A stretch of DNA of 47,086 nt from a phage. The position numbers and the translations under genes were made by a program. The first letter of the stretch is position 1. Each line of letters starts with the position of its first letter. The notes below the pieces were generated by a model. The model saw only the letters and a program-made list of their open reading frames with translations, was not told the DNA's origin and did not search any database. Location of the stretch: the NCBI GenBank assembly GCA_020364185.1, contig GCA_020364185.1_4846.1, one strand, 5' to 3'. Below are positions 14,491 to 40,330 of this stretch, piece by piece.

Positions 14491-14519
14491 TTGACACCTG
14501 CGGGGAGGTGATGTAGATT
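14491..14519 (+). promoter_or_regulatory. sigma70-like promoter (TTGACA - 17 bp - TAGATT) for plus-strand moron cassette
   Basis: TTGACA at 14491-14496, 17-bp spacer, TAGATT at 14514-14519, then GAGGTGAG RBS and ATG at 14555. Confidence 0.5.
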
Positions 14520-33282: not shown

Positions 33283-34210
33283 CCGATTGCCATGCTTCAC
33301 GCTGCTTATCAAGTCTTTCCTGCGACGACTCAAGAATGACTGGTCTACCATCCATTAATAACGCAGGAGTTTGTGCGCAATGACAATTATATCTGTTGCC
33401 ATTCTCGCTATAGAACGTGTCAATCTCTTCTGGCGTATAAAACCGTCCGTGTCGCGCCGCGTGCGTCTGGCGGGTTGTGCGCATCAATGCTGACTGCCAC
33501 AGCATCACCGTCTCAATACCTAATTCCTCGCGTGCCTCAATGACTTCCCGCCTGTTAGCCTGCCGCAGTGTTCCGGTGATTTCAGTCTGCGCCAGCTGCT
33601 TAGCGTAGCTGTGAGACACATCGACACGCTTAACGATATCAGCTTCAACATCACGAGGATTAGCGCCACGGGCAATACCTTCCATAATGACAGATGCCAG
33701 TTGCTGGCGGGAATAGTCGCTCAATCCGCGCCAGTCGGAATAGCCAGCGGCATAGGCCAGCTGGAGTCGATTCAGGTAAGGCTCACTGTAGAGTATCGCG
33801 GCAATCGGCCTCTGCTCAGCATAAACCGGAGACAGGCTTGACAGTTCTGAGTTAGCCTTCTGTGTTCCGGCCTGATACGCATCACCGATGAACACATTAG
33901 CCCACATCCTGCCGTGACCGAAATCATCACCTTCCAGCAGAATCTCGTCAATCAGCGCCTGCAACTCATCCATGAAAGTAGCAGCCCGCGCGCTACTGAA
34001 ATCGTAGAAATACAATCCGCTCGATTCCGCGTTAGCCTGACTATGCGGAATGGTGCGGAACGACTCAAGCGCACGAGCCCTGAGTTGTTTGTATTTGCGC
34101 GTTATCACTTTGTCCATCTTTGACAGTCTGGTTGCAGCGCCCAGCGGGTCGGTCAGACTCTGCGATATGCGCGGTTGAGGTAGCCTTGCGTTAAACCGGA
34201 GTATCTTCAT
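33260..34210 (-). CDS. minor head (head morphogenesis) protein, Mu F / SPP1 gp7-like
   Basis: start moved to ATG 34210 (track N-terminal extension overlaps portal by 250 nt); C-terminal half matches the conserved region recalled for Mu F-like proteins (...AQTEITGT...[12 protein letters not shown]...NCHC...). Confidence 0.6.
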
Positions 34211-35603
34211 TTTCGTCTTCCGGCGGTGTGTCTTCGCGGTAGCTTTCGTCAAGTTCAATCGGCTCCATACCAACCATGCCGCGAGCCTCATCGACGCTAA
34301 GTAGCGCAGATTGACCAGCATCAAAGAATGACTTGTTCGCAGTGGCGAGTTTAGCCAGCAATTCAGCCTTATCCAGTTCAGATGGTGCCAGCAAGTCATC
34401 CCACTTAACCTTGTAGCCATTTTCCGGCGCTTTATCGACAATGCCGAACTGAATCATGCGTTCAACGAACATTGAAATAACATAGTCAACCCATGTTTCG
34501 CGGCGCTGCTTGGCGGTCATTGCCTCCTGCATCTTGTCTTCGTCGCTCGCAAGGCGTCCGGTTTGCTGACCAAAAATGACGGTGAAAGGAAGTGCCATTG
34601 ATGCAGCGAACTGGTTGGCGGCCACTTCCCATGTTGGTTTTGGGTCTGCCGGGGTTACAGCCAGAACCTTCGCATCGGCCCCCATCGTGAACATAGCGGC
34701 ATCAATCCCTGAGTTGAGAGCCTCAATGTTCTCATTCATGATGTCGGTGAGTTCTTCAATGTCGACACCCATCGACTGCGCAAGGCTTGCTGGCGTTACG
34801 TTATCCTTCGTGTAGTTAACCGCCAGCTGGCGACTGGCATTTTTCAGGAAGCCCTCCGCAGAGCTACCGGAAACCTTCGCCATGTCGATAAGGCTGTTGT
34901 AGCCAGCACGTAGCATCGGGATGCCACTGAACATGCTTCCATCAAAGCTACCCTCAGCCAGAATGATGATGCGGTCTGGATGAATCTGCACGGAACGCTC
35001 AGGCTTGCCGTCGCTGTCGAAGTCTTCCACGGCGCTCTCCTGATATTCGTACATCTCAGGCATTCCGTAGTCTTCGCTGGTTTCGTTGTTATTCCACGCA
35101 CTGACTTTGAGCTGCTCCTCCCATACCGGAATAAAGCGGACGATGGATTTATCTTTAATGCGGCGGGTTTTGGTGATATCTACCGGCTCACTCCACTTGC
35201 GACCATCCCGGATTTGCAGGATAACGGCGGAATAGCGGTTGATAGCATTGCGCTTATCGGCTTCCTTGATGAACGGGTAGGCGCGCTTCATCATGTTGTT
35301 GATGGACAACTCCCACGTCGTTGAGTTCTTGTCATCCTCGCCATCTTCGACCACTTCGGGGTATTTCTGCCAACATTTATTAATAATGCGGTTAATGCCA
35401 GCTGCGGCTGCTGGGTGCCGTTCGTAGGCATAGCGGAACATCTCAGCGGTGATTTCCTGCGGGTATCCGCATTCCTGCCACAACCTGTCATGTTTCTGGT
35501 CAAGATTCTTCCCTCCAGCGCAAAGCCGTTGTTGCTGAAGTGCCCGGTTATTGTTCGCCACGCGGTCGCGTATGTAGGCGTTTAGTGCATCAATTTTTGA
35601 CAT
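34191..35603 (-). CDS. portal protein (putative)
   Basis: 470-aa ORF between large terminase side and Mu F-like gene; acidic C-terminus; assignment by size and synteny. Confidence 0.55.
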
Positions 35604-35610
35604 ATGTCAC

Positions 35611-35640
35611 CAATAAAAATCCCATCACGTTGGATGGGAT
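35611..35640 (-). terminator. stem-loop / attenuator immediately upstream of portal RBS
   Basis: 8-bp stem ATCCCATC-6 nt-GATGGGAT followed on minus strand by UUUUAUUG. Confidence 0.45.
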
Positions 35641-35660
35641 TATAGCATTAACTAGTAAAT

Positions 35661-35888
35661 TTAATCTTCATCGTCGTCATCGTCGTCATCATAGTCGCAT
35701 CGTTCCATCAGCGGATTCATGCGAGTTGATACCGACCTTGCATATCCATTGCGGCATAAATTATGTAACACGCCGTAAATTTCAAACATTTCAGTTCTTT
35801 CATCTCCCACATCAAGATTACAAGCCAATGCGTGGCACTCTGCTGCGAGAGACGATATTTTTTGCATCAGTTCAATTTTATTCATCAC
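35661..35888 (-). CDS. small protein with poly-Asp C-terminal tail
   Basis: 75 aa ending DYDDDDDDDED. Confidence 0.4.
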   Translation of the reverse strand: MMNKIELMQKISSLAAECHALACNLDVGDERTEMFEIYGVLHNLCRNGYARSVSTRMNPLMERCDYDDDDDDDED

Positions 35889-36070
35889 TCCACCTTTTCC
35901 AGTTTATCAATGATAACGTCGTAGCCTTTTATTTCGTATTTTGCAACCAATTCGCAACCCAAAAACCAATCGAACGCTTCATTGGCGTTTGATGTCGTAG
36001 CTGTCGCGCAAACCTTAGTAACAACATCGCCGCCATCAAGCACCTCAGCATGAATAAAATAAACGCTCAT
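35885..36070 (-). CDS. hypothetical protein
   Basis: 61-aa ORF with ATGA overlaps on both sides. Confidence 0.35.
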   Translation of the reverse strand: MSVYFIHAEVLDGGDVVTKVCATATTSNANEAFDWFLGCELVAKYEIKGYDVIIDKLEKVE

Positions 36071-36237
36071 TGCTCAATCTCCTCGCCATCAACCCAGCGT
36101 TGCAGAACTTCGATTAGTTGCGTGGCTTGGTGTTTGTCGATAACTACAATGTGCGTATCTTGGCAAATCATGCCGCCATCAGTAACACCGCCGCACATAA
36201 CATCAATATCAGGATACTCTTCGCTTTCAATAATCAT
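36067..36237 (-). CDS. hypothetical protein (56 aa)
   Basis: hand-translated MIIESEEYPDIDVMCGGVTDGGMICQDTHIVVIDKHQATQLIEVLQRWVDGEEIEQ. Confidence 0.3.
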   Translation of the reverse strand: MIIESEEYPDIDVMCGGVTDGGMICQDTHIVVIDKHQATQLIEVLQRWVDGEEIEQ

Positions 36238-36241
36238 CACA

Positions 36242-36448
36242 TCACCCTCTCAAAAAATCATTCTTGCAGCAGATACCCTTGTACCCGCGCTTCTCTTGCA
36301 GGTTAACGAAAACATCATCCAGAACGCGCAGCAGGAAATCCTCGTCGATGCCATACCGACGGCAAATCACCTCATCAGGCACGCCAGCCCGTGCCAGTGA
36401 ATAAACCTGTTCTTTTTCCTCCTGTGTGAATCCTGCATAGCTGCGCAT
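36242..36448 (-). CDS. hypothetical protein
   Basis: 68-aa ORF, first gene after promoter cluster. Confidence 0.35.
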   Translation of the reverse strand: MRSYAGFTQEEKEQVYSLARAGVPDEVICRRYGIDEDFLLRVLDDVFVNLQEKRGYKGICCKNDFLRG

Positions 36449-36468
36449 AGTGATATCTCCGATAATCC

Positions 36469-36599
36469 TGATGTAGATATACTATGCGCTCGGTGTAGAT
36501 TGGTCAAGTGTGGTGATGCGGATTTATTAACAGTAATAATAAATGTTGACGTAGATATCTACCGGTCGTAACATGAGTGATGTAGATATGAGAAAGGAG
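36469..36599 (+). promoter_or_regulatory. cluster of four GTAGAT-core motif copies plus RBS in front of PAPS-reductase-like gene
   Basis: TGATGTAGATAT 36469-36480, GTGTAGATTGGTCAA 36493-36507, TTGACGTAGATAT 36546-36558 (GTAGATATCTAC palindrome), TGATGTAGATAT 36578-36589, AAGGAG 36594-36599. Confidence 0.45.
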
Positions 36600-36607
36600 C
36601 GATGGAT

Positions 36608-37483
36608 ATGAATCAAGTTATTAGCTTTTCAGGCGGCAGGACTTCAGCGTTTATGACACTTGAGGTGCTAAAGATACACCCAGAAGCAGAGGTTATCTTT
36701 ATGGACACTGGAGCAGAGCACCCAAAAACGTATGAGTTTATTCGCAACTTCGCAAAGCACTTCAATGTCGCCGTGACATGTCTTCGTGTGGTGCCAAATC
36801 ATGAGATGCGCAAAGCAAGTACGTATGAGCAGTTAACCGTCGATGAGATTGGCCCGGACCTTGAGCCATGGCGTAGAATGTTGCGCAAGTACGGTCACCC
36901 ATATGTTGGTGGGGCGTTCTGCACTGACCGCATGAAAACAGTCCCATTCACAAAATACTGCAATGAAAAATACGGGAAGAGCAATTATGAGAGATGGCTT
37001 GGTATCAGGGTTGATGAACAAAATCGGTTAAAGAATAGAGGTGACGGTTTTCATTACCTTGCAGACATCAGTGACTTTGAAAAGCAGGATATCCTTGACT
37101 GGTGGTCAATGCAAGAGTTCGACCTTGGCATTAAGGAGCATCTTGGCAATTGCGTTTTCTGCATCAAGAAGAGTCTGCAGAAGGTTGCGCTTGCTGCAAA
37201 GGATGAGCCTGAACTTGCCGCTGAATTTTGGCAGATGATTCAGGCTGAAGATAAAAAATCAGACAAGATAATGTATCGTTCAAACAGAAGCCTTGGCGAC
37301 GTTATAGCTTTATTTAACGATGCAAGCAGGGATGAACTGGCATCACGGATGACGTCAATGCGCCAGTACGATACTGGCTCATGCAGTGAGAGCTGCGAGG
37401 CGTTTGGTGGGACCGAGAATTCAATGAAGCATTACTTAAATGACGCTGGTGATGATTATGAAAATCGTGGCGATGACTCATGA
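36608..37483 (+). CDS. PAPS reductase-like PP-loop ATPase family protein
   Basis: N-terminal ISFSGGRTSA PP-loop; start at ATG 36608 (8 nt after AAGGAG) preferred over 36602. Confidence 0.7.
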   Translation: MNQVISFSGGRTSAFMTLEVLKIHPEAEVIFMDTGAEHPKTYEFIRNFAKHFNVAVTCLRVVPNHEMRKASTYEQLTVDEIGPDLEPWRRMLRKYGHPYVGGAFCTDRMKTVPFTKYCNEKYGKSNYERWLGIRVDEQNRLKNRGDGFHYLADISDFEKQDILDWWSMQEFDLGIKEHLGNCVFCIKKSLQKVALAAKDEPELAAEFWQMIQAEDKKSDKIMYRSNRSLGDVIALFNDASRDELASRMTSMRQYDTGSCSESCEAFGGTENSMKHYLNDAGDDYENRGDDS

Positions 37484-37698
37484 ACAACGAAAAGCACGAC
37501 GATGGCTCCATTTCTATAGATACCAATGATGGAAGGCATTTCTTTGCTCATTTCATTAATGGCTCATACAACTTAATAGAGGTTGTATCTGGTGGTTGCG
37601 TGGGAATCGGCAGAATTGAAGATGAGGGAAGCATTAATCACATAATATTGAGGTGGATTGAACTTAATCCAGTGGCCCCAAGCGCCGAACTATTCTAA
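37480..37698 (+). CDS. hypothetical protein
   Basis: 72-aa ORF, ATGA-coupled to upstream gene. Confidence 0.4.
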   Translation: MNNEKHDDGSISIDTNDGRHFFAHFINGSYNLIEVVSGGCVGIGRIEDEGSINHIILRWIELNPVAPSAELF

Positions 37699-37703
37699 AA
37701 ACA

Positions 37704-37730
37704 AGCCCTCATTCGAGGGCTTTATTTTTA
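37704..37730. terminator. bidirectional intrinsic terminator
   Basis: AGCCCTC-attc-GAGGGCT followed by TTTATTTTTAT. Confidence 0.65.
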
Positions 37731-39152
37731 TCTCCTGCGCCTGATTAGCATTCCGCTGCCGCGCTGGACGATGTGGTCATTAAGTGCGTAGCGAACCGCA
37801 TCCCAGTAATGGTTAAATGCATCAACAATATCTGTCAGCACATTGCCAGTCAGCTTATCCACCTTATAGCTGTACATTGCGGCCTCATTCTGCATTTCCT
37901 TGCATCTGTCATGAATAATGATACTGTCGCAGCCACGAAGCCACGTCACACCATCCTCAACGCTTCCCGGCCATTTTGTGCATGGATGAATATCGAATCC
38001 AGAGCGCTTGATGTGGCTGATGGTTTCAGGTCGAGCGCAGTCTGCATACCATCGCGCGCGCTTAGCCATCGGGAATGATTGCTCCATCGCGGCTGGTGTA
38101 TCGGTAATTTCAAGCCCCACCTTGCCGTACTCGCGATTAATATAAATGTTGCGTCGCCCGCCCGGTAATTCTTCGATGTAAACCTCAACCATTGCGGTAG
38201 GATCGGTGGAAAAACCAAAATCCATCCCGAAGTATGGGCCGTGCCATTCAGGTTTGACCTCAAAGTTATCAATGCGCCACTTGCCTCCGAAGACCTGCTC
38301 GTCGCTGCGTTTGTTAAATTTTCCTTCCCATATCCACATGTAGCGATCGAAATCGACGCGCTTCATTTGCTCCATAGCAGACGGCAGAGGTGTATCCCAG
38401 AACCACGGATTGTCTGAATAGTTACATTCGATAATCAGGATTTCATCATTTTCGAATATGCCATCAACCATCTGTGAGTGATATGGGGCAATCCAGTTTT
38501 TCCATGTTGGGTCTGTATCTTTGTTGGGGTTGAATGAGCACCACAATTCGGAATTGGCAGCACGGATGGTAGGAACGAGAATATCCCAGCTTGTCTGGCT
38601 GACGTTCTCTGCTTCCTCTACCCAGCCGACGGTAATGCCAGCAAAACCCTTAACGGTTGTCTGATTGCGATACAGCCCCTTAAAGCGAAATTTAGCCTTA
38701 GTCTTCTTGTGTGTTATCTCGTTGTTGATAACGCGAAACTCTGCCGATTCGCCCTTGCGCGCTATTTCGTCGCACAATTCCTGGTAGCTTGAGTCTTCAA
38801 TGGATTGCTGAATCTCACGAAAGCAGGCAAAGCGGTCAGGTCGAAACCTTGCACGTTCAGTAAGTATAGTGATAATAGTTCTCGTCTTCCCTGACCCACG
38901 GCCGCCGTAGACAAACTTAAAACGCTTCGGGTAAAGCAGTCGCTCCAGCTTTGCGGGAATCAGGTGGTCGGCATCGGTGGTTGCGTTGGTTACGTCATCA
39001 ACGCCAGTGGCTGTCATCCTTAACCGCTTGATGACGTTTTTCTGCATGTCACAGATACCAAAAATGGCAGACTCTGCAACATCCGTCATCGCATCATCAA
39101 TCTGAGCTTCCAGTTTTTCAATTGCCAGAGCGGATAGGCGTTTACGAGCCAT
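37728..39152 (-). CDS. terminase large subunit
   Basis: Walker A FVYGGRGSGKT near N-terminus, about 475 aa, acidic nuclease-type C-terminal half; ATG 39152 chosen (track start 39170 is TTG). Confidence 0.8.
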   Translation of the reverse strand: MARKRLSALAIEKLEAQIDDAMTDVAESAIFGICDMQKNVIKRLRMTATGVDDVTNATTDADHLIPAKLERLLYPKRFKFVYGGRGSGKTRTIITILTERARFRPDRFACFREIQQSIEDSSYQELCDEIARKGESAEFRVINNEITHKKTKAKFRFKGLYRNQTTVKGFAGITVGWVEEAENVSQTSWDILVPTIRAANSELWCSFNPNKDTDPTWKNWIAPYHSQMVDGIFENDEILIIECNYSDNPWFWDTPLPSAMEQMKRVDFDRYMWIWEGKFNKRSDEQVFGGKWRIDNFEVKPEWHGPYFGMDFGFSTDPTAMVEVYIEELPGGRRNIYINREYGKVGLEITDTPAAMEQSFPMAKRARWYADCARPETISHIKRSGFDIHPCTKWPGSVEDGVTWLRGCDSIIIHDRCKEMQNEAAMYSYKVDKLTGNVLTDIVDAFNHYWDAVRYALNDHIVQRGSGMLIRRRR

Positions 39153-39297
39153 GACGCGAAGTCCCAACAATAGTAATTATTGTCGCCGTCAGCATGAACA
39201 TGCATCCCCATATCGCGAAAGCGGTAGCTCCTGAAATACCACCAGCGATAAACATCAACATTGCAAGCGCCATGCTTGAGAGTGCCAGCTTAAGCAT
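39142..39297 (-). CDS. small hydrophobic ORF (51 aa), possible membrane peptide
   Basis: hand-translated MLKLALSSMALAMLMFIAGGISGATAFAIWGCMFMLTATIITIVGTSRHGS between terminase genes. Confidence 0.25.
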   Translation of the reverse strand: MLKLALSSMALAMLMFIAGGISGATAFAIWGCMFMLTATIITIVGTSRHGS

Positions 39298-39430: not shown

Positions 39431-39850
39431 TCACGCATTCTGCTGCTCCAGCAATTTCTCCAGTCGCTCAAGTCGCGCGGCGAGTTCGGTAACTTCGGCG
39501 ATATCCAGTCCTGTCCTGATAACTTCAGCAAATGTCTTGCCAATGTCCACAGGTATAACACCAGCGGCTATACCACGAATGACGGCATCAATCTTCTGCA
39601 CTGGAGTTCCGTCATCAGGGAAGTCAACCTCAAAAACTGGGGCCACCGGTTTAGGTAGCGGACTGAATCGAACGATTAGTTCCTTCATCATCGCCGTGTC
39701 ACGTTCAATCATCGCCATCTCGACGATGGTGTCATAGAGCTTTTCCTCACTAAATCCCTTTCTCTCAAGAGCCTCAACGAGCAACTTGCGCTTATCTTTC
39801 CCGCGTTTGTTTTGCGGTTGATTTTCTTTACTGAATAGCTTTTTAGCCAT
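39431..39850 (-). CDS. terminase small subunit (putative)
   Basis: 139-aa ORF upstream of large terminase; basic N-terminus, C-terminal coiled coil; positional inference. Confidence 0.4.
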   Translation of the reverse strand: MAKKLFSKENQPQNKRGKDKRKLLVEALERKGFSEEKLYDTIVEMAMIERDTAMMKELIVRFSPLPKPVAPVFEVDFPDDGTPVQKIDAVIRGIAAGVIPVDIGKTFAEVIRTGLDIAEVTELAARLERLEKLLEQQNA

Positions 39851-40330
39851 AGATAAAACCTATCAATATTCCGCTATTTTTCCGTTATTCGATATTGTAA
39901 CAGATTCTACACCATGGCGTTAATGGCAAAAAAGAACCCGCACAAGGCGGGTAAAAGGTTGAGTGATGATATGAGTGAAAGCAATGGTGGTTATGTGCTT
40001 ATTGTACACCATCATTATCACGCTTGCCAGCATAGCACCATGCGTTTTCTGTTCGCGTCTGCACATGGACGATTTCAAGCGCATCAGGGAATGTCTTTGC
40101 TACCTTCGCGATAAAATCGTCCAATTCGTGCTGCTTTGCGAGCTGCCAGACTTTCTGTTTAGTGGTTTGCATTATCAAAAGCCCTCGTTGAGCACATGTA
40201 CTTAATGTCGTGCACGCCGTTATCCGGAACAACTTCAATGCGATTACTGAGCTGCACCATCATGTAATGACAGGTCATCATGCCGTCCCAGTAACGTTTC
40301 CACATGAATTCCATTGCCTCATTGATATCG

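Follow-up and report, generated by a model that had tools for sequence, protein, structure and literature searches.

The stretch of DNA analyzed here (hereafter the window, 47,086 nucleotides in full) matches, at about 90% identity across about 60% of its length, virulent siphophages of the Skatevirus, Cedarrivervirus, and Swiduovirus types (Salmonella, E. coli, Shigella), and we assign it by sequence to a Skatevirus-like virulent siphophage, i.e., to a phage group that is covered by the BASEL extension (doi 10.1101/2024.09.12.612763). On the minus strand, the genes for TerL (37728-39170) and the portal protein (34191-35603, with its ATG at 35603) enclose four short ORFs of the same orientation, which lie, just as a preliminary description of this DNA had placed them, between a promoter and a hairpin upstream of the portal gene. 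More specifically, these are ORF1 (36242-36448; 68 aa), the invariant leader of the cassette; ORF2 (36067-36240; 57 aa when read from GTG, 56 aa from the ATG at 36237); ORF3 (35885-36070; 61 aa); and ORF4 (35661-35888; 75 aa from GTG, 74 aa from the ATG at 35885), and the GC content of the cassette is 41-48%, against 50-55%. The four ORFs had been described as ATGA-coupled throughout, which holds for the ORF2/ORF3 junction; the ORF1/ORF2 junction is instead a spacer of 1-4 nt and the ORF3/ORF4 junction is GTGA or TGATG. A Shine-Dalgarno sequence precedes every ORF start and is located within the end of the preceding gene, and all three junctions appear tight enough to permit translational coupling. 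The closest database match for the cassette region is OR544125.1 (locus L001), named "Acinetobacter phage vB_AbaM_AB4P2"; its genome resembles that of a Skatevirus-type siphophage, and the host and morphotype label seems doubtful. A megablast search with positions 22087-47086 of the window also matched about 60 Stx-converting and other lambdoid phages, and this half of the window may hold more accessory genes common to temperate phages.

For comparison among relatives, 41 loci were used, namely, the window, three relatives from the phage database, three contigs fetched with ORF4, and 34 IMG/VR contigs fetched with ORF1. Each of the four ORFs matched a PHROG profile over essentially its full length (ORF1, phrog_13301, E = 1.9e-46; ORF2, phrog_13627, E = 4.7e-17; ORF3, phrog_26739, E = 3.9e-24; ORF4, phrog_4220, E = 2.9e-37), and all four profiles are annotated as "unknown function". 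In a codon-level comparison of ORF1 across 40 loci, median pN was 0.013 and median pS was 0.198. Likewise, pN and pS were 0.030 and 0.208 for ORF2 (versus its closest homologue), 0-0.04 and 0.21-0.26 for ORF3 (versus close homologues), and, for ORF4, 0.017-0.034 and 0.115 versus related contigs or 0.19-0.36 and 0.82-0.94 versus prophage copies. ORF1 to ORF4 are real genes rather than chance ORFs, and all are under purifying selection; conservation as intact frames in related genomes, on which the preliminary description had staked its proposal, is borne out. Scans of the four ORFs against Pfam, NCBIfam, and PADLOC yielded no match above threshold, the sole match being a weak one of ORF2 to DUF7189 (E = 0.043, below threshold), and an Rfam scan of positions 34000-38500 revealed no RNA family.

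The leader is preceded by a predicted sigma-70-type promoter on the minus strand (36479..36507), composed of a -35 hexamer TTGACC (36507-36502), a 17-nt spacer, and a -10 hexamer TAGTAT (36484-36479). This TTGACC-17-TAGTAT arrangement was found in 41/41 loci, with at most single-base variants of the hexamers, as well as in Klebsiella and Swiduovirus relatives in which ORF1 is only 52-65% identical. Three exact copies of the motif TCTACRYCA stand at the promoter (36469..36586, minus strand; at 36469-36477, 36547-36555, and 36578-36586), and a copy with one mismatch lies in the promoter spacer (36491-36499); one of the copies covers the predicted transcription start. Across the window, the motif occurs 15 times (at 14509, 16244, 19795, 19826, 29233, 29258, 31950, and 31979 in the first half of the series, and at 36469, 36547, 36578, 36869, 39906, 42425, and 42442 in the second), against 0.76 copies expected by chance, and, except for one copy (36869-36877) within the PAPS-reductase-like gene described below, the other 14 avoid the long ORFs and are found at promoters or between genes. 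Nearly all copies stand as direct or inverted pairs. The motif is also conserved in Klebsiella (Roufvirus-like) and Swiduovirus relatives, and it probably serves as the binding site of a phage regulator (an operator) or belongs to a phage-specific promoter. A DnaA box was considered for this motif and rejected, since the match was poor on inspection.

About 10 candidate extended -10 promoters of the form TGnTAnAAT, devoid of a good -35 element, stand ahead of minus-strand operons on that strand (at 39902, 35647, 31939, 28155, 26165, 19785, 16219, 14479, 9230, and 6651). At four of them, a same-strand copy of TCTACRYCA precedes the promoter by 12-24 nt, as would be expected of an activator site, and at a fifth (39902) a copy lies alongside on the opposite strand. 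Just upstream of the portal gene, a terminator-like hairpin shares its 5' arm with the perfect extended -10 TGCTATAAT (35639..35647, minus strand), which overlaps it and likely drives the portal/head operon. This hairpin, AATCCCATC-CAACGT-GATGGGATT plus a T run (35611..35641, minus strand), has a stem of 9 pairs (within 35641..35618) followed by TTTTTATT, and it forms the core of the minimum-free-energy fold of a 57-nt segment (-15.9 kcal/mol, z = -3.1). Among the relatives, four stem variants were found, all of which pair (CCCATC/GATGGG, CCCTC/GAGGG, CCCC/GGGG, and CCCTTAC/GTGAGGG), and the hairpin thus combines the GC stem-loop, the U run, and the pairing kept across relatives by which Rho-independent terminators are recognized. 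The TGCTATAAT-plus-hairpin element is located at the cassette end in most loci, and TGNTATAAT overlaps the hairpin and T run directly 5' of the portal start in loci with the common portal leader; in CF-SP1, one Swiduovirus relative, the portal-upstream TGNTATAAT/hairpin element was not found. Taken as sequence, the cassette looks like a separate transcription unit with its own predicted promoter and terminator.

Opposite the cassette, on the plus strand, lies a divergent variable slot (36546..37722) with its own promoter-like site (36546-36574), a PAPS-reductase-like gene (36602-37483; Pfam PF01507; PADLOC SspD 2e-12 and BrxP 4e-07), an orphan ORF of 72 aa (37480-37698), and a bidirectional terminator (37703-37722) common to this slot and TerL. 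Throughout L001-L043, the TerL-ORF1 gap constitutes a second hypervariable slot, which is either empty (a gap of 94 bp) or filled by one of at least nine families. Loci with the 94-bp gap have no terminator between TerL and the cassette, and there the cassette may be co-read with the terminase genes.

The preliminary description had regarded small genes inside the packaging/head module as an unusual insertion. Within this phage group, that view is not supported, as a cassette occupies the TerL-portal position in 41/41 Skatevirus-like loci, and a tblastn search of 50,697 phage records found ORF1 in 206 of them, mostly at 95-99% identity, ORF2 in 83, and ORF3 in 48. The insertion polymorphism for which a comparison with relatives had been proposed proved to be strong: the 41 loci hold 1-7 genes each, ORF1 being first in every locus (88-99% identical overall, 94-99% in 39 of the 40 other loci) and followed by 0-6 genes from at least 28 families, whose relative order is conserved when they are present. 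The last slot, the most variable one, is alternately occupied by at least seven families, including the ORF4 family and an HNH homing endonuclease; by their distribution, ORF2 and ORF3 appear to be common occupants of the cassette and ORF4 a rare occupant of its last slot. Elsewhere, the cargo comprises an HslV-family peptidase, a HigA/XRE-like HTH protein, small membrane proteins, and zinc-ribbon proteins, with most genes unannotated. An HslV-family peptidase-like gene (phrog_1040) and a HigA/XRE-type HTH gene are unusual cargo for the packaging region of a virulent phage. These two kinds of cargo were noted in L017, L018, L021, L032, and L039 (a gene of about 163-167 aa after ORF1) and in L029 and L033 (104-106 aa). 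The promoter region and ORF1 form a conserved block (36234..36558, minus strand), delimited by blastn and by the upstream alignment of the 41 loci; in a blastn comparison of the window with eight divergent loci, this block kept 90-96% nucleotide identity, against about 67% for TerL and about 73-77% for the portal. We conclude that, in this phage group, the TerL-portal interval is a universal fixed hotspot of exchangeable accessory genes, with a hypervariable slot.

Deposited mutants of Salmonella phage seszw (L011/L045), a member of the Skatevirus-like group that underwent CRISPR-based iterative genome reduction (PMC9825161), bear on whether the cassette is dispensable. The text of that study names no gene of the TerL-portal region, and a paper on the screening of phage accessory genes does not mention the Skatevirus-like group. 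All 70/70 seszw records (at least 99% identity) match the segment from the promoter through ORF1 and the second gene. Many of the deposited mutants have lost the last-slot HNH gene, precisely its 477 bp, and some (MZ375328, MZ375355) have lost the second cassette gene as well; promoter and ORF1 are kept in every seszw record listed, including the smallest genome, of 35,993 bp. Cargo at the TerL-portal locus is non-essential in the laboratory, the deleted seszw cargo being F5 and the HNH gene, which are different genes from ORF2-4. The retention of ORF1 in the reduced genomes hints, short of proof, that ORF1 matters, and it may possibly reflect the choice of deletion targets instead of essentiality.

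The AlphaFold2 model of ORF1 (pLDDT 83) consists of three helices (residues 9-20, 25-32, and 36-53). Its fold matches in the PDB are mostly HTH DNA-binding domains, at non-significant E values (0.7-5), and include NarL/GerE, CENP-B, ArdK, resolvase/Hin, and IstA. One database record labels ORF1 as "InsA C-terminal domain protein"; a Pfam HTH match was not obtained, and the PDB profile search was also empty. Based on the HTH-like model and on a position behind a motif-laden promoter, ORF1 is probably a regulator of the cassette. In the Klebsiella and Swiduovirus relatives, TCTACRYCA is equally conserved where ORF1 is only 52-65% identical, and with the motif unvarying, these relatives yield no covariation that would link the protein to it. 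The role of small terminase was rejected for ORF1, a 139-aa candidate for that role being located upstream of TerL at 39431-39850.

ORF4 was absent from related phage isolates of the phage database (0/173), and among the 50,697 phage records tblastn detected it in 14, every one of them temperate or plasmid-like and from Klebsiella, Escherichia, or Enterobacter. Three metagenomic relatives of the window of about 46 kb carry it as well, again in the last slot and after an ORF3-family gene. In exhaustive searches, the family amounted to 93 clusters at 90% identity and 51 at 50% identity, with members only from Enterobacteriaceae; when 1.84 billion proteins were searched by profile, it grew to no more than 51 clusters. 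Elsewhere, the family resides in enterobacterial prophages, in early accessory arrays in the nin region or near xis/int, with Ead/Ea22, DUF551, EaA, dATP-dGTP_PPHyd, NinG, and integrase genes as neighbors. In prophages, the gene always overlaps by 8 nt the end of a modular early gene of 220-310 aa carrying DUF551, Ead/Ea22, or dATP-dGTP_PPHyd domains (L004, L006, L049-L056), the overlap being 4 nt in one Enterobacter lineage (L055/L056). Some clusters of the family are fused to Ead_Ea22/DUF551, and these fusions probably represent read-through of the overlapping upstream gene. A conserved 89-aa gene follows the ORF4-family gene in most of the prophage loci (L004, L006, L049-L056). In lambda, comparable genes, those of the exo-xis region, belong to the first to be transcribed (PMC10834534, PMC7093339).

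The family shares a core of about 62 aa with 15 invariant residues, centered on DERTEMFEIYxVLxNLxRxGYA. The C-terminus of ORF4 is CDYDDDDDDDED; it ends DYDDDDDDDED (C-D-Y-DDDDDDD-E-D), and the run of seven Asp reported in the preliminary description is indeed present. The codons for D-Y-D7-E-D (35664..35699, minus strand) contain a 9-nt tandem repeat (35668-35690) that is prone to slippage, and tail length differs among copies that are 93-96% identical. Nearly all members of the family carry such a tail (e.g., DDDEDEEDDDWDEDDD, DEDESDEDDE, and DYDDYDDDDVDYDYD), with length and sequence varying and acidic composition kept. AlphaFold2 modeled ORF4 with helices at residues 3-23, 28-44, 48-56, and 58-62 (pLDDT 84 overall) and with a pLDDT of about 48-57 for tail residues 64-75; core residues 1-63 comprise 8 acidic and 7 basic residues, for a net charge of about -1, to which the tail adds about -10. 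ORF4 had no PDB profile match, and Foldseek found nothing below E = 1 in either PDB or BFVD. A conserved Zn site was rejected, because Cys and His positions are not invariant. As for the interaction surface that the acidic tail had been taken to suggest, conservation of the tail across the family indicates that the tail is probably functional, whereas DNA mimicry of the Ocr/ArdA type fits poorly with a near-neutral core and a disordered tail.

How the cassettes are joined is evident from the nucleotide sequence: ORF1 and the genes of the ORF2 and ORF3 families each have a conserved 3' end, and each such end is followed by many different genes. These ends (...TTGAGAGGGTGA/TGTGATG for ORF1, ...GGTGAGGAGATTGAGTGA/TG for the ORF2 family, and ...GAAAAGGTGGAGTGA/TG for the ORF3 family) form linkers of 15-25 nt, with the ribosome-binding site of the next gene in the last codons and a stop/start overlap (GAGTGATG). 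Because the linkers are conserved, ORF2 relatives are alike only in the C-terminal helix (IDKHQAxQLIEVLQRWVNGEEIE), the N-terminal half being hypervariable, and ORF3 relatives only at both ends (MSVYFIHAE... and ...VIDKLEKVE), the middle being variable. It is plausible that the linkers are sites of homologous exchange of cassettes, as in classical modular phage evolution. In addition, TerL identity classes of about 60%, 85%, and 98% and portal classes of about 68% and 97% occur in all combinations around ORF1 (L010-L043). With ORF1 itself at 94-99% identity, this pattern indicates that the hotspot is a pivot of recombination between the packaging and head modules, and truncated remnants of ORF3 in three loci (L001, L016, and L043) indicate that deletion, too, acts on the array. 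Together with the HNH endonuclease that fills a slot in seszw, these combinations and remnants would also fit a scenario in which ORF1 and the junctions are conserved merely as recombination linkers and the cargo genes are selfish or neutral passengers without benefit to the phage. We consider this scenario unlikely, since changes in ORF1 are mostly synonymous (pN 0.013 versus pS 0.198), so the protein is selected, pN is likewise much lower than pS in ORF2-4, and the ORF4 tail stays acidic despite slippage-driven changes in its length.

The reading that we favor, and regard as reasonably likely with its parts taken jointly, is that the locus is a non-essential host-interaction or counter-defense island, of which ORF1 is the probable regulator and in which the ORF4 tail would serve as a polyanionic competitor. 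According to this reading, the conserved block of about 320 bp would provide a strong sigma-70 promoter and the leader ORF1, and host RNA polymerase would transcribe the unit early, a timing suggested by the promoter consensus and the context of the homologues. ORF1 would bind the TCTACRYCA sites on the promoter and regulate the cassette, in which 0-6 small genes, recruited from among at least 28 families and linked by stop/start junctions, follow the leader. Cassette transcripts would end at the hairpin, and the extended -10 overlapping it would restart transcription for the portal and head genes; transcripts from this promoter would begin inside the stem and be unable to fold the hairpin. 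With the former stopping and the latter starting within the stem, the accessory unit would be insulated from the head operon. ORF2-4 would act on host or defense proteins, and for ORF4 we prefer, as a tentative possibility, a mechanism in which the helical core docks on a target protein and the flexible tail acts as a polyanionic, nucleic-acid-like competitor for the place of nucleic acid on it.

A different joint interpretation would make ORF1 a global HTH switch that binds TCTACRYCA at about eight promoter regions, shutting its own strong early promoter through the motif copies at +1 and within the spacer, and helping to fire extended -10 late promoters through those 12-24 nt upstream, with the hotspot being an Aca-style counter-defense island and the ORF4 family a new class of inhibitors with disordered polyacidic tails, shared by virulent and temperate enterobacterial phages; as a whole, we regard this combination as improbable. 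Quite improbable, too, in our estimation, is the idea that the ORF4 family consists of phage-against-phage exclusion or lysogeny-decision factors, one of which was captured by chance in this virulent phage. The family is indeed overwhelmingly prophage-borne and linked to Ead/Ea22, DUF551, and EaA genes, and exo-xis genes influence the choice between lysis and lysogeny (PMC7093339, PMC10834534), which counts in its favor; however, at least three distinct virulent lineages keep ORF4 intact, under purifying selection and in the same slot each time, and a lysogeny decision is irrelevant to a virulent phage. Finally, we find least probable that the small genes act late, as helpers of morphogenesis or packaging (e.g., head-assembly or terminase accessory proteins) co-transcribed with TerL and portal, for although they lie within the packaging/head module, lack a TerL/ORF1 terminator in relatives with the 94-bp gap, and include a gene, ORF1, that is conserved like a core gene and retained in all reduced seszw genomes examined, their number varies from 1 to 7 among relatives despite near-identical portals, second- and last-slot genes are absent from viable seszw mutants, ORF4 homologues reside in prophage early regions distant from structural genes, and the cassette has its own predicted promoter and terminator.

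Viewed as an accessory island, the locus can be compared with several known systems. Morons of lambdoid phages are accessory-gene units. Accessory-gene hotspots are also known from P2/P4 (PMC9122126). In common with these, the cassette holds a fixed position between conserved core genes with a content that is highly variable among close relatives, presence/absence variation of this kind having been found throughout the 41 loci, and it has a predicted promoter and terminator of its own, a lower GC content, and cargo that proved dispensable in the case of seszw. It differs in residing in a virulent siphophage and in having an invariant HTH-like leader, conserved stop/start linkers, and cargo without known function. 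In acr-aca operons, variable small inhibitors stand beside a conserved HTH autorepressor (PMC7648647). Similarly, the cassette combines a conserved small gene, HTH-like by prediction, with variable small genes and with a strong promoter overlapped by repeated motifs; unlike in acr-aca operons, the HTH gene is first rather than last and the motif, with its 15 copies, is spread over the genome and not limited to the cassette promoter. Searches of Pfam, NCBIfam, PADLOC, PDB sequences, and Foldseek matched none of the ORFs to known defense or anti-defense families, and neither the regulator nor the cargo had homology to Aca, Acr, or anti-defense proteins in these searches.

The exo-xis, ea, and nin arrays of lambdoid phages contain, e.g., Ea22, Orf63, and Orf73/TraR (PMC10834534, PMC10869804, PMC9239242). 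It is in such arrays that ORF4 homologues reside, among small early genes mostly of unknown function; in contrast, ORF4 lacks homology to the characterized members, and the copy in the window lies in a hotspot of a virulent phage's packaging module. Among proteins with pronounced negative charge, Ocr and ArdA are folded DNA mimics, and SSB and T7 gp2.5 have acidic C-terminal tails. Like all four, ORF4 has a region of strong negative charge, which could fill a surface that binds DNA or RNA; it has no sequence or fold similarity to any of them. Unlike that of Ocr and ArdA, its charge lies in a disordered tail and not on a folded surface. Unlike SSB, whose acidic tail is attached to an OB fold, it has an all-helical core and a tail that ends DED, lacking a hydrophobic tip (DDDIPF-like); some ORF4 relatives have W or Y embedded in the tail, but no conserved tip. 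In the siphophage SPP1, genes 3-5 are small genes of unknown function between TerL and portal, and the cassette, compared here by position, is likewise a set of small TerL-portal genes.

The cassette itself is an ordinary accessory-gene island, and it is of value chiefly as a well-defined place to look for small proteins that interact with the host. New host-takeover and counter-defense proteins can be sought efficiently in hotspots that keep a fixed position and are marked by a conserved gene, and in the Skatevirus-like group, which is used in Salmonella biocontrol and present in the BASEL collection, one conserved leader gene marks at least 28 small protein families. The ORF4 family, in turn, ties virulent phages to prophage early arrays, and one experiment on ORF4 could assign a function to genes of many Klebsiella, Enterobacter, and E. 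coli prophages.
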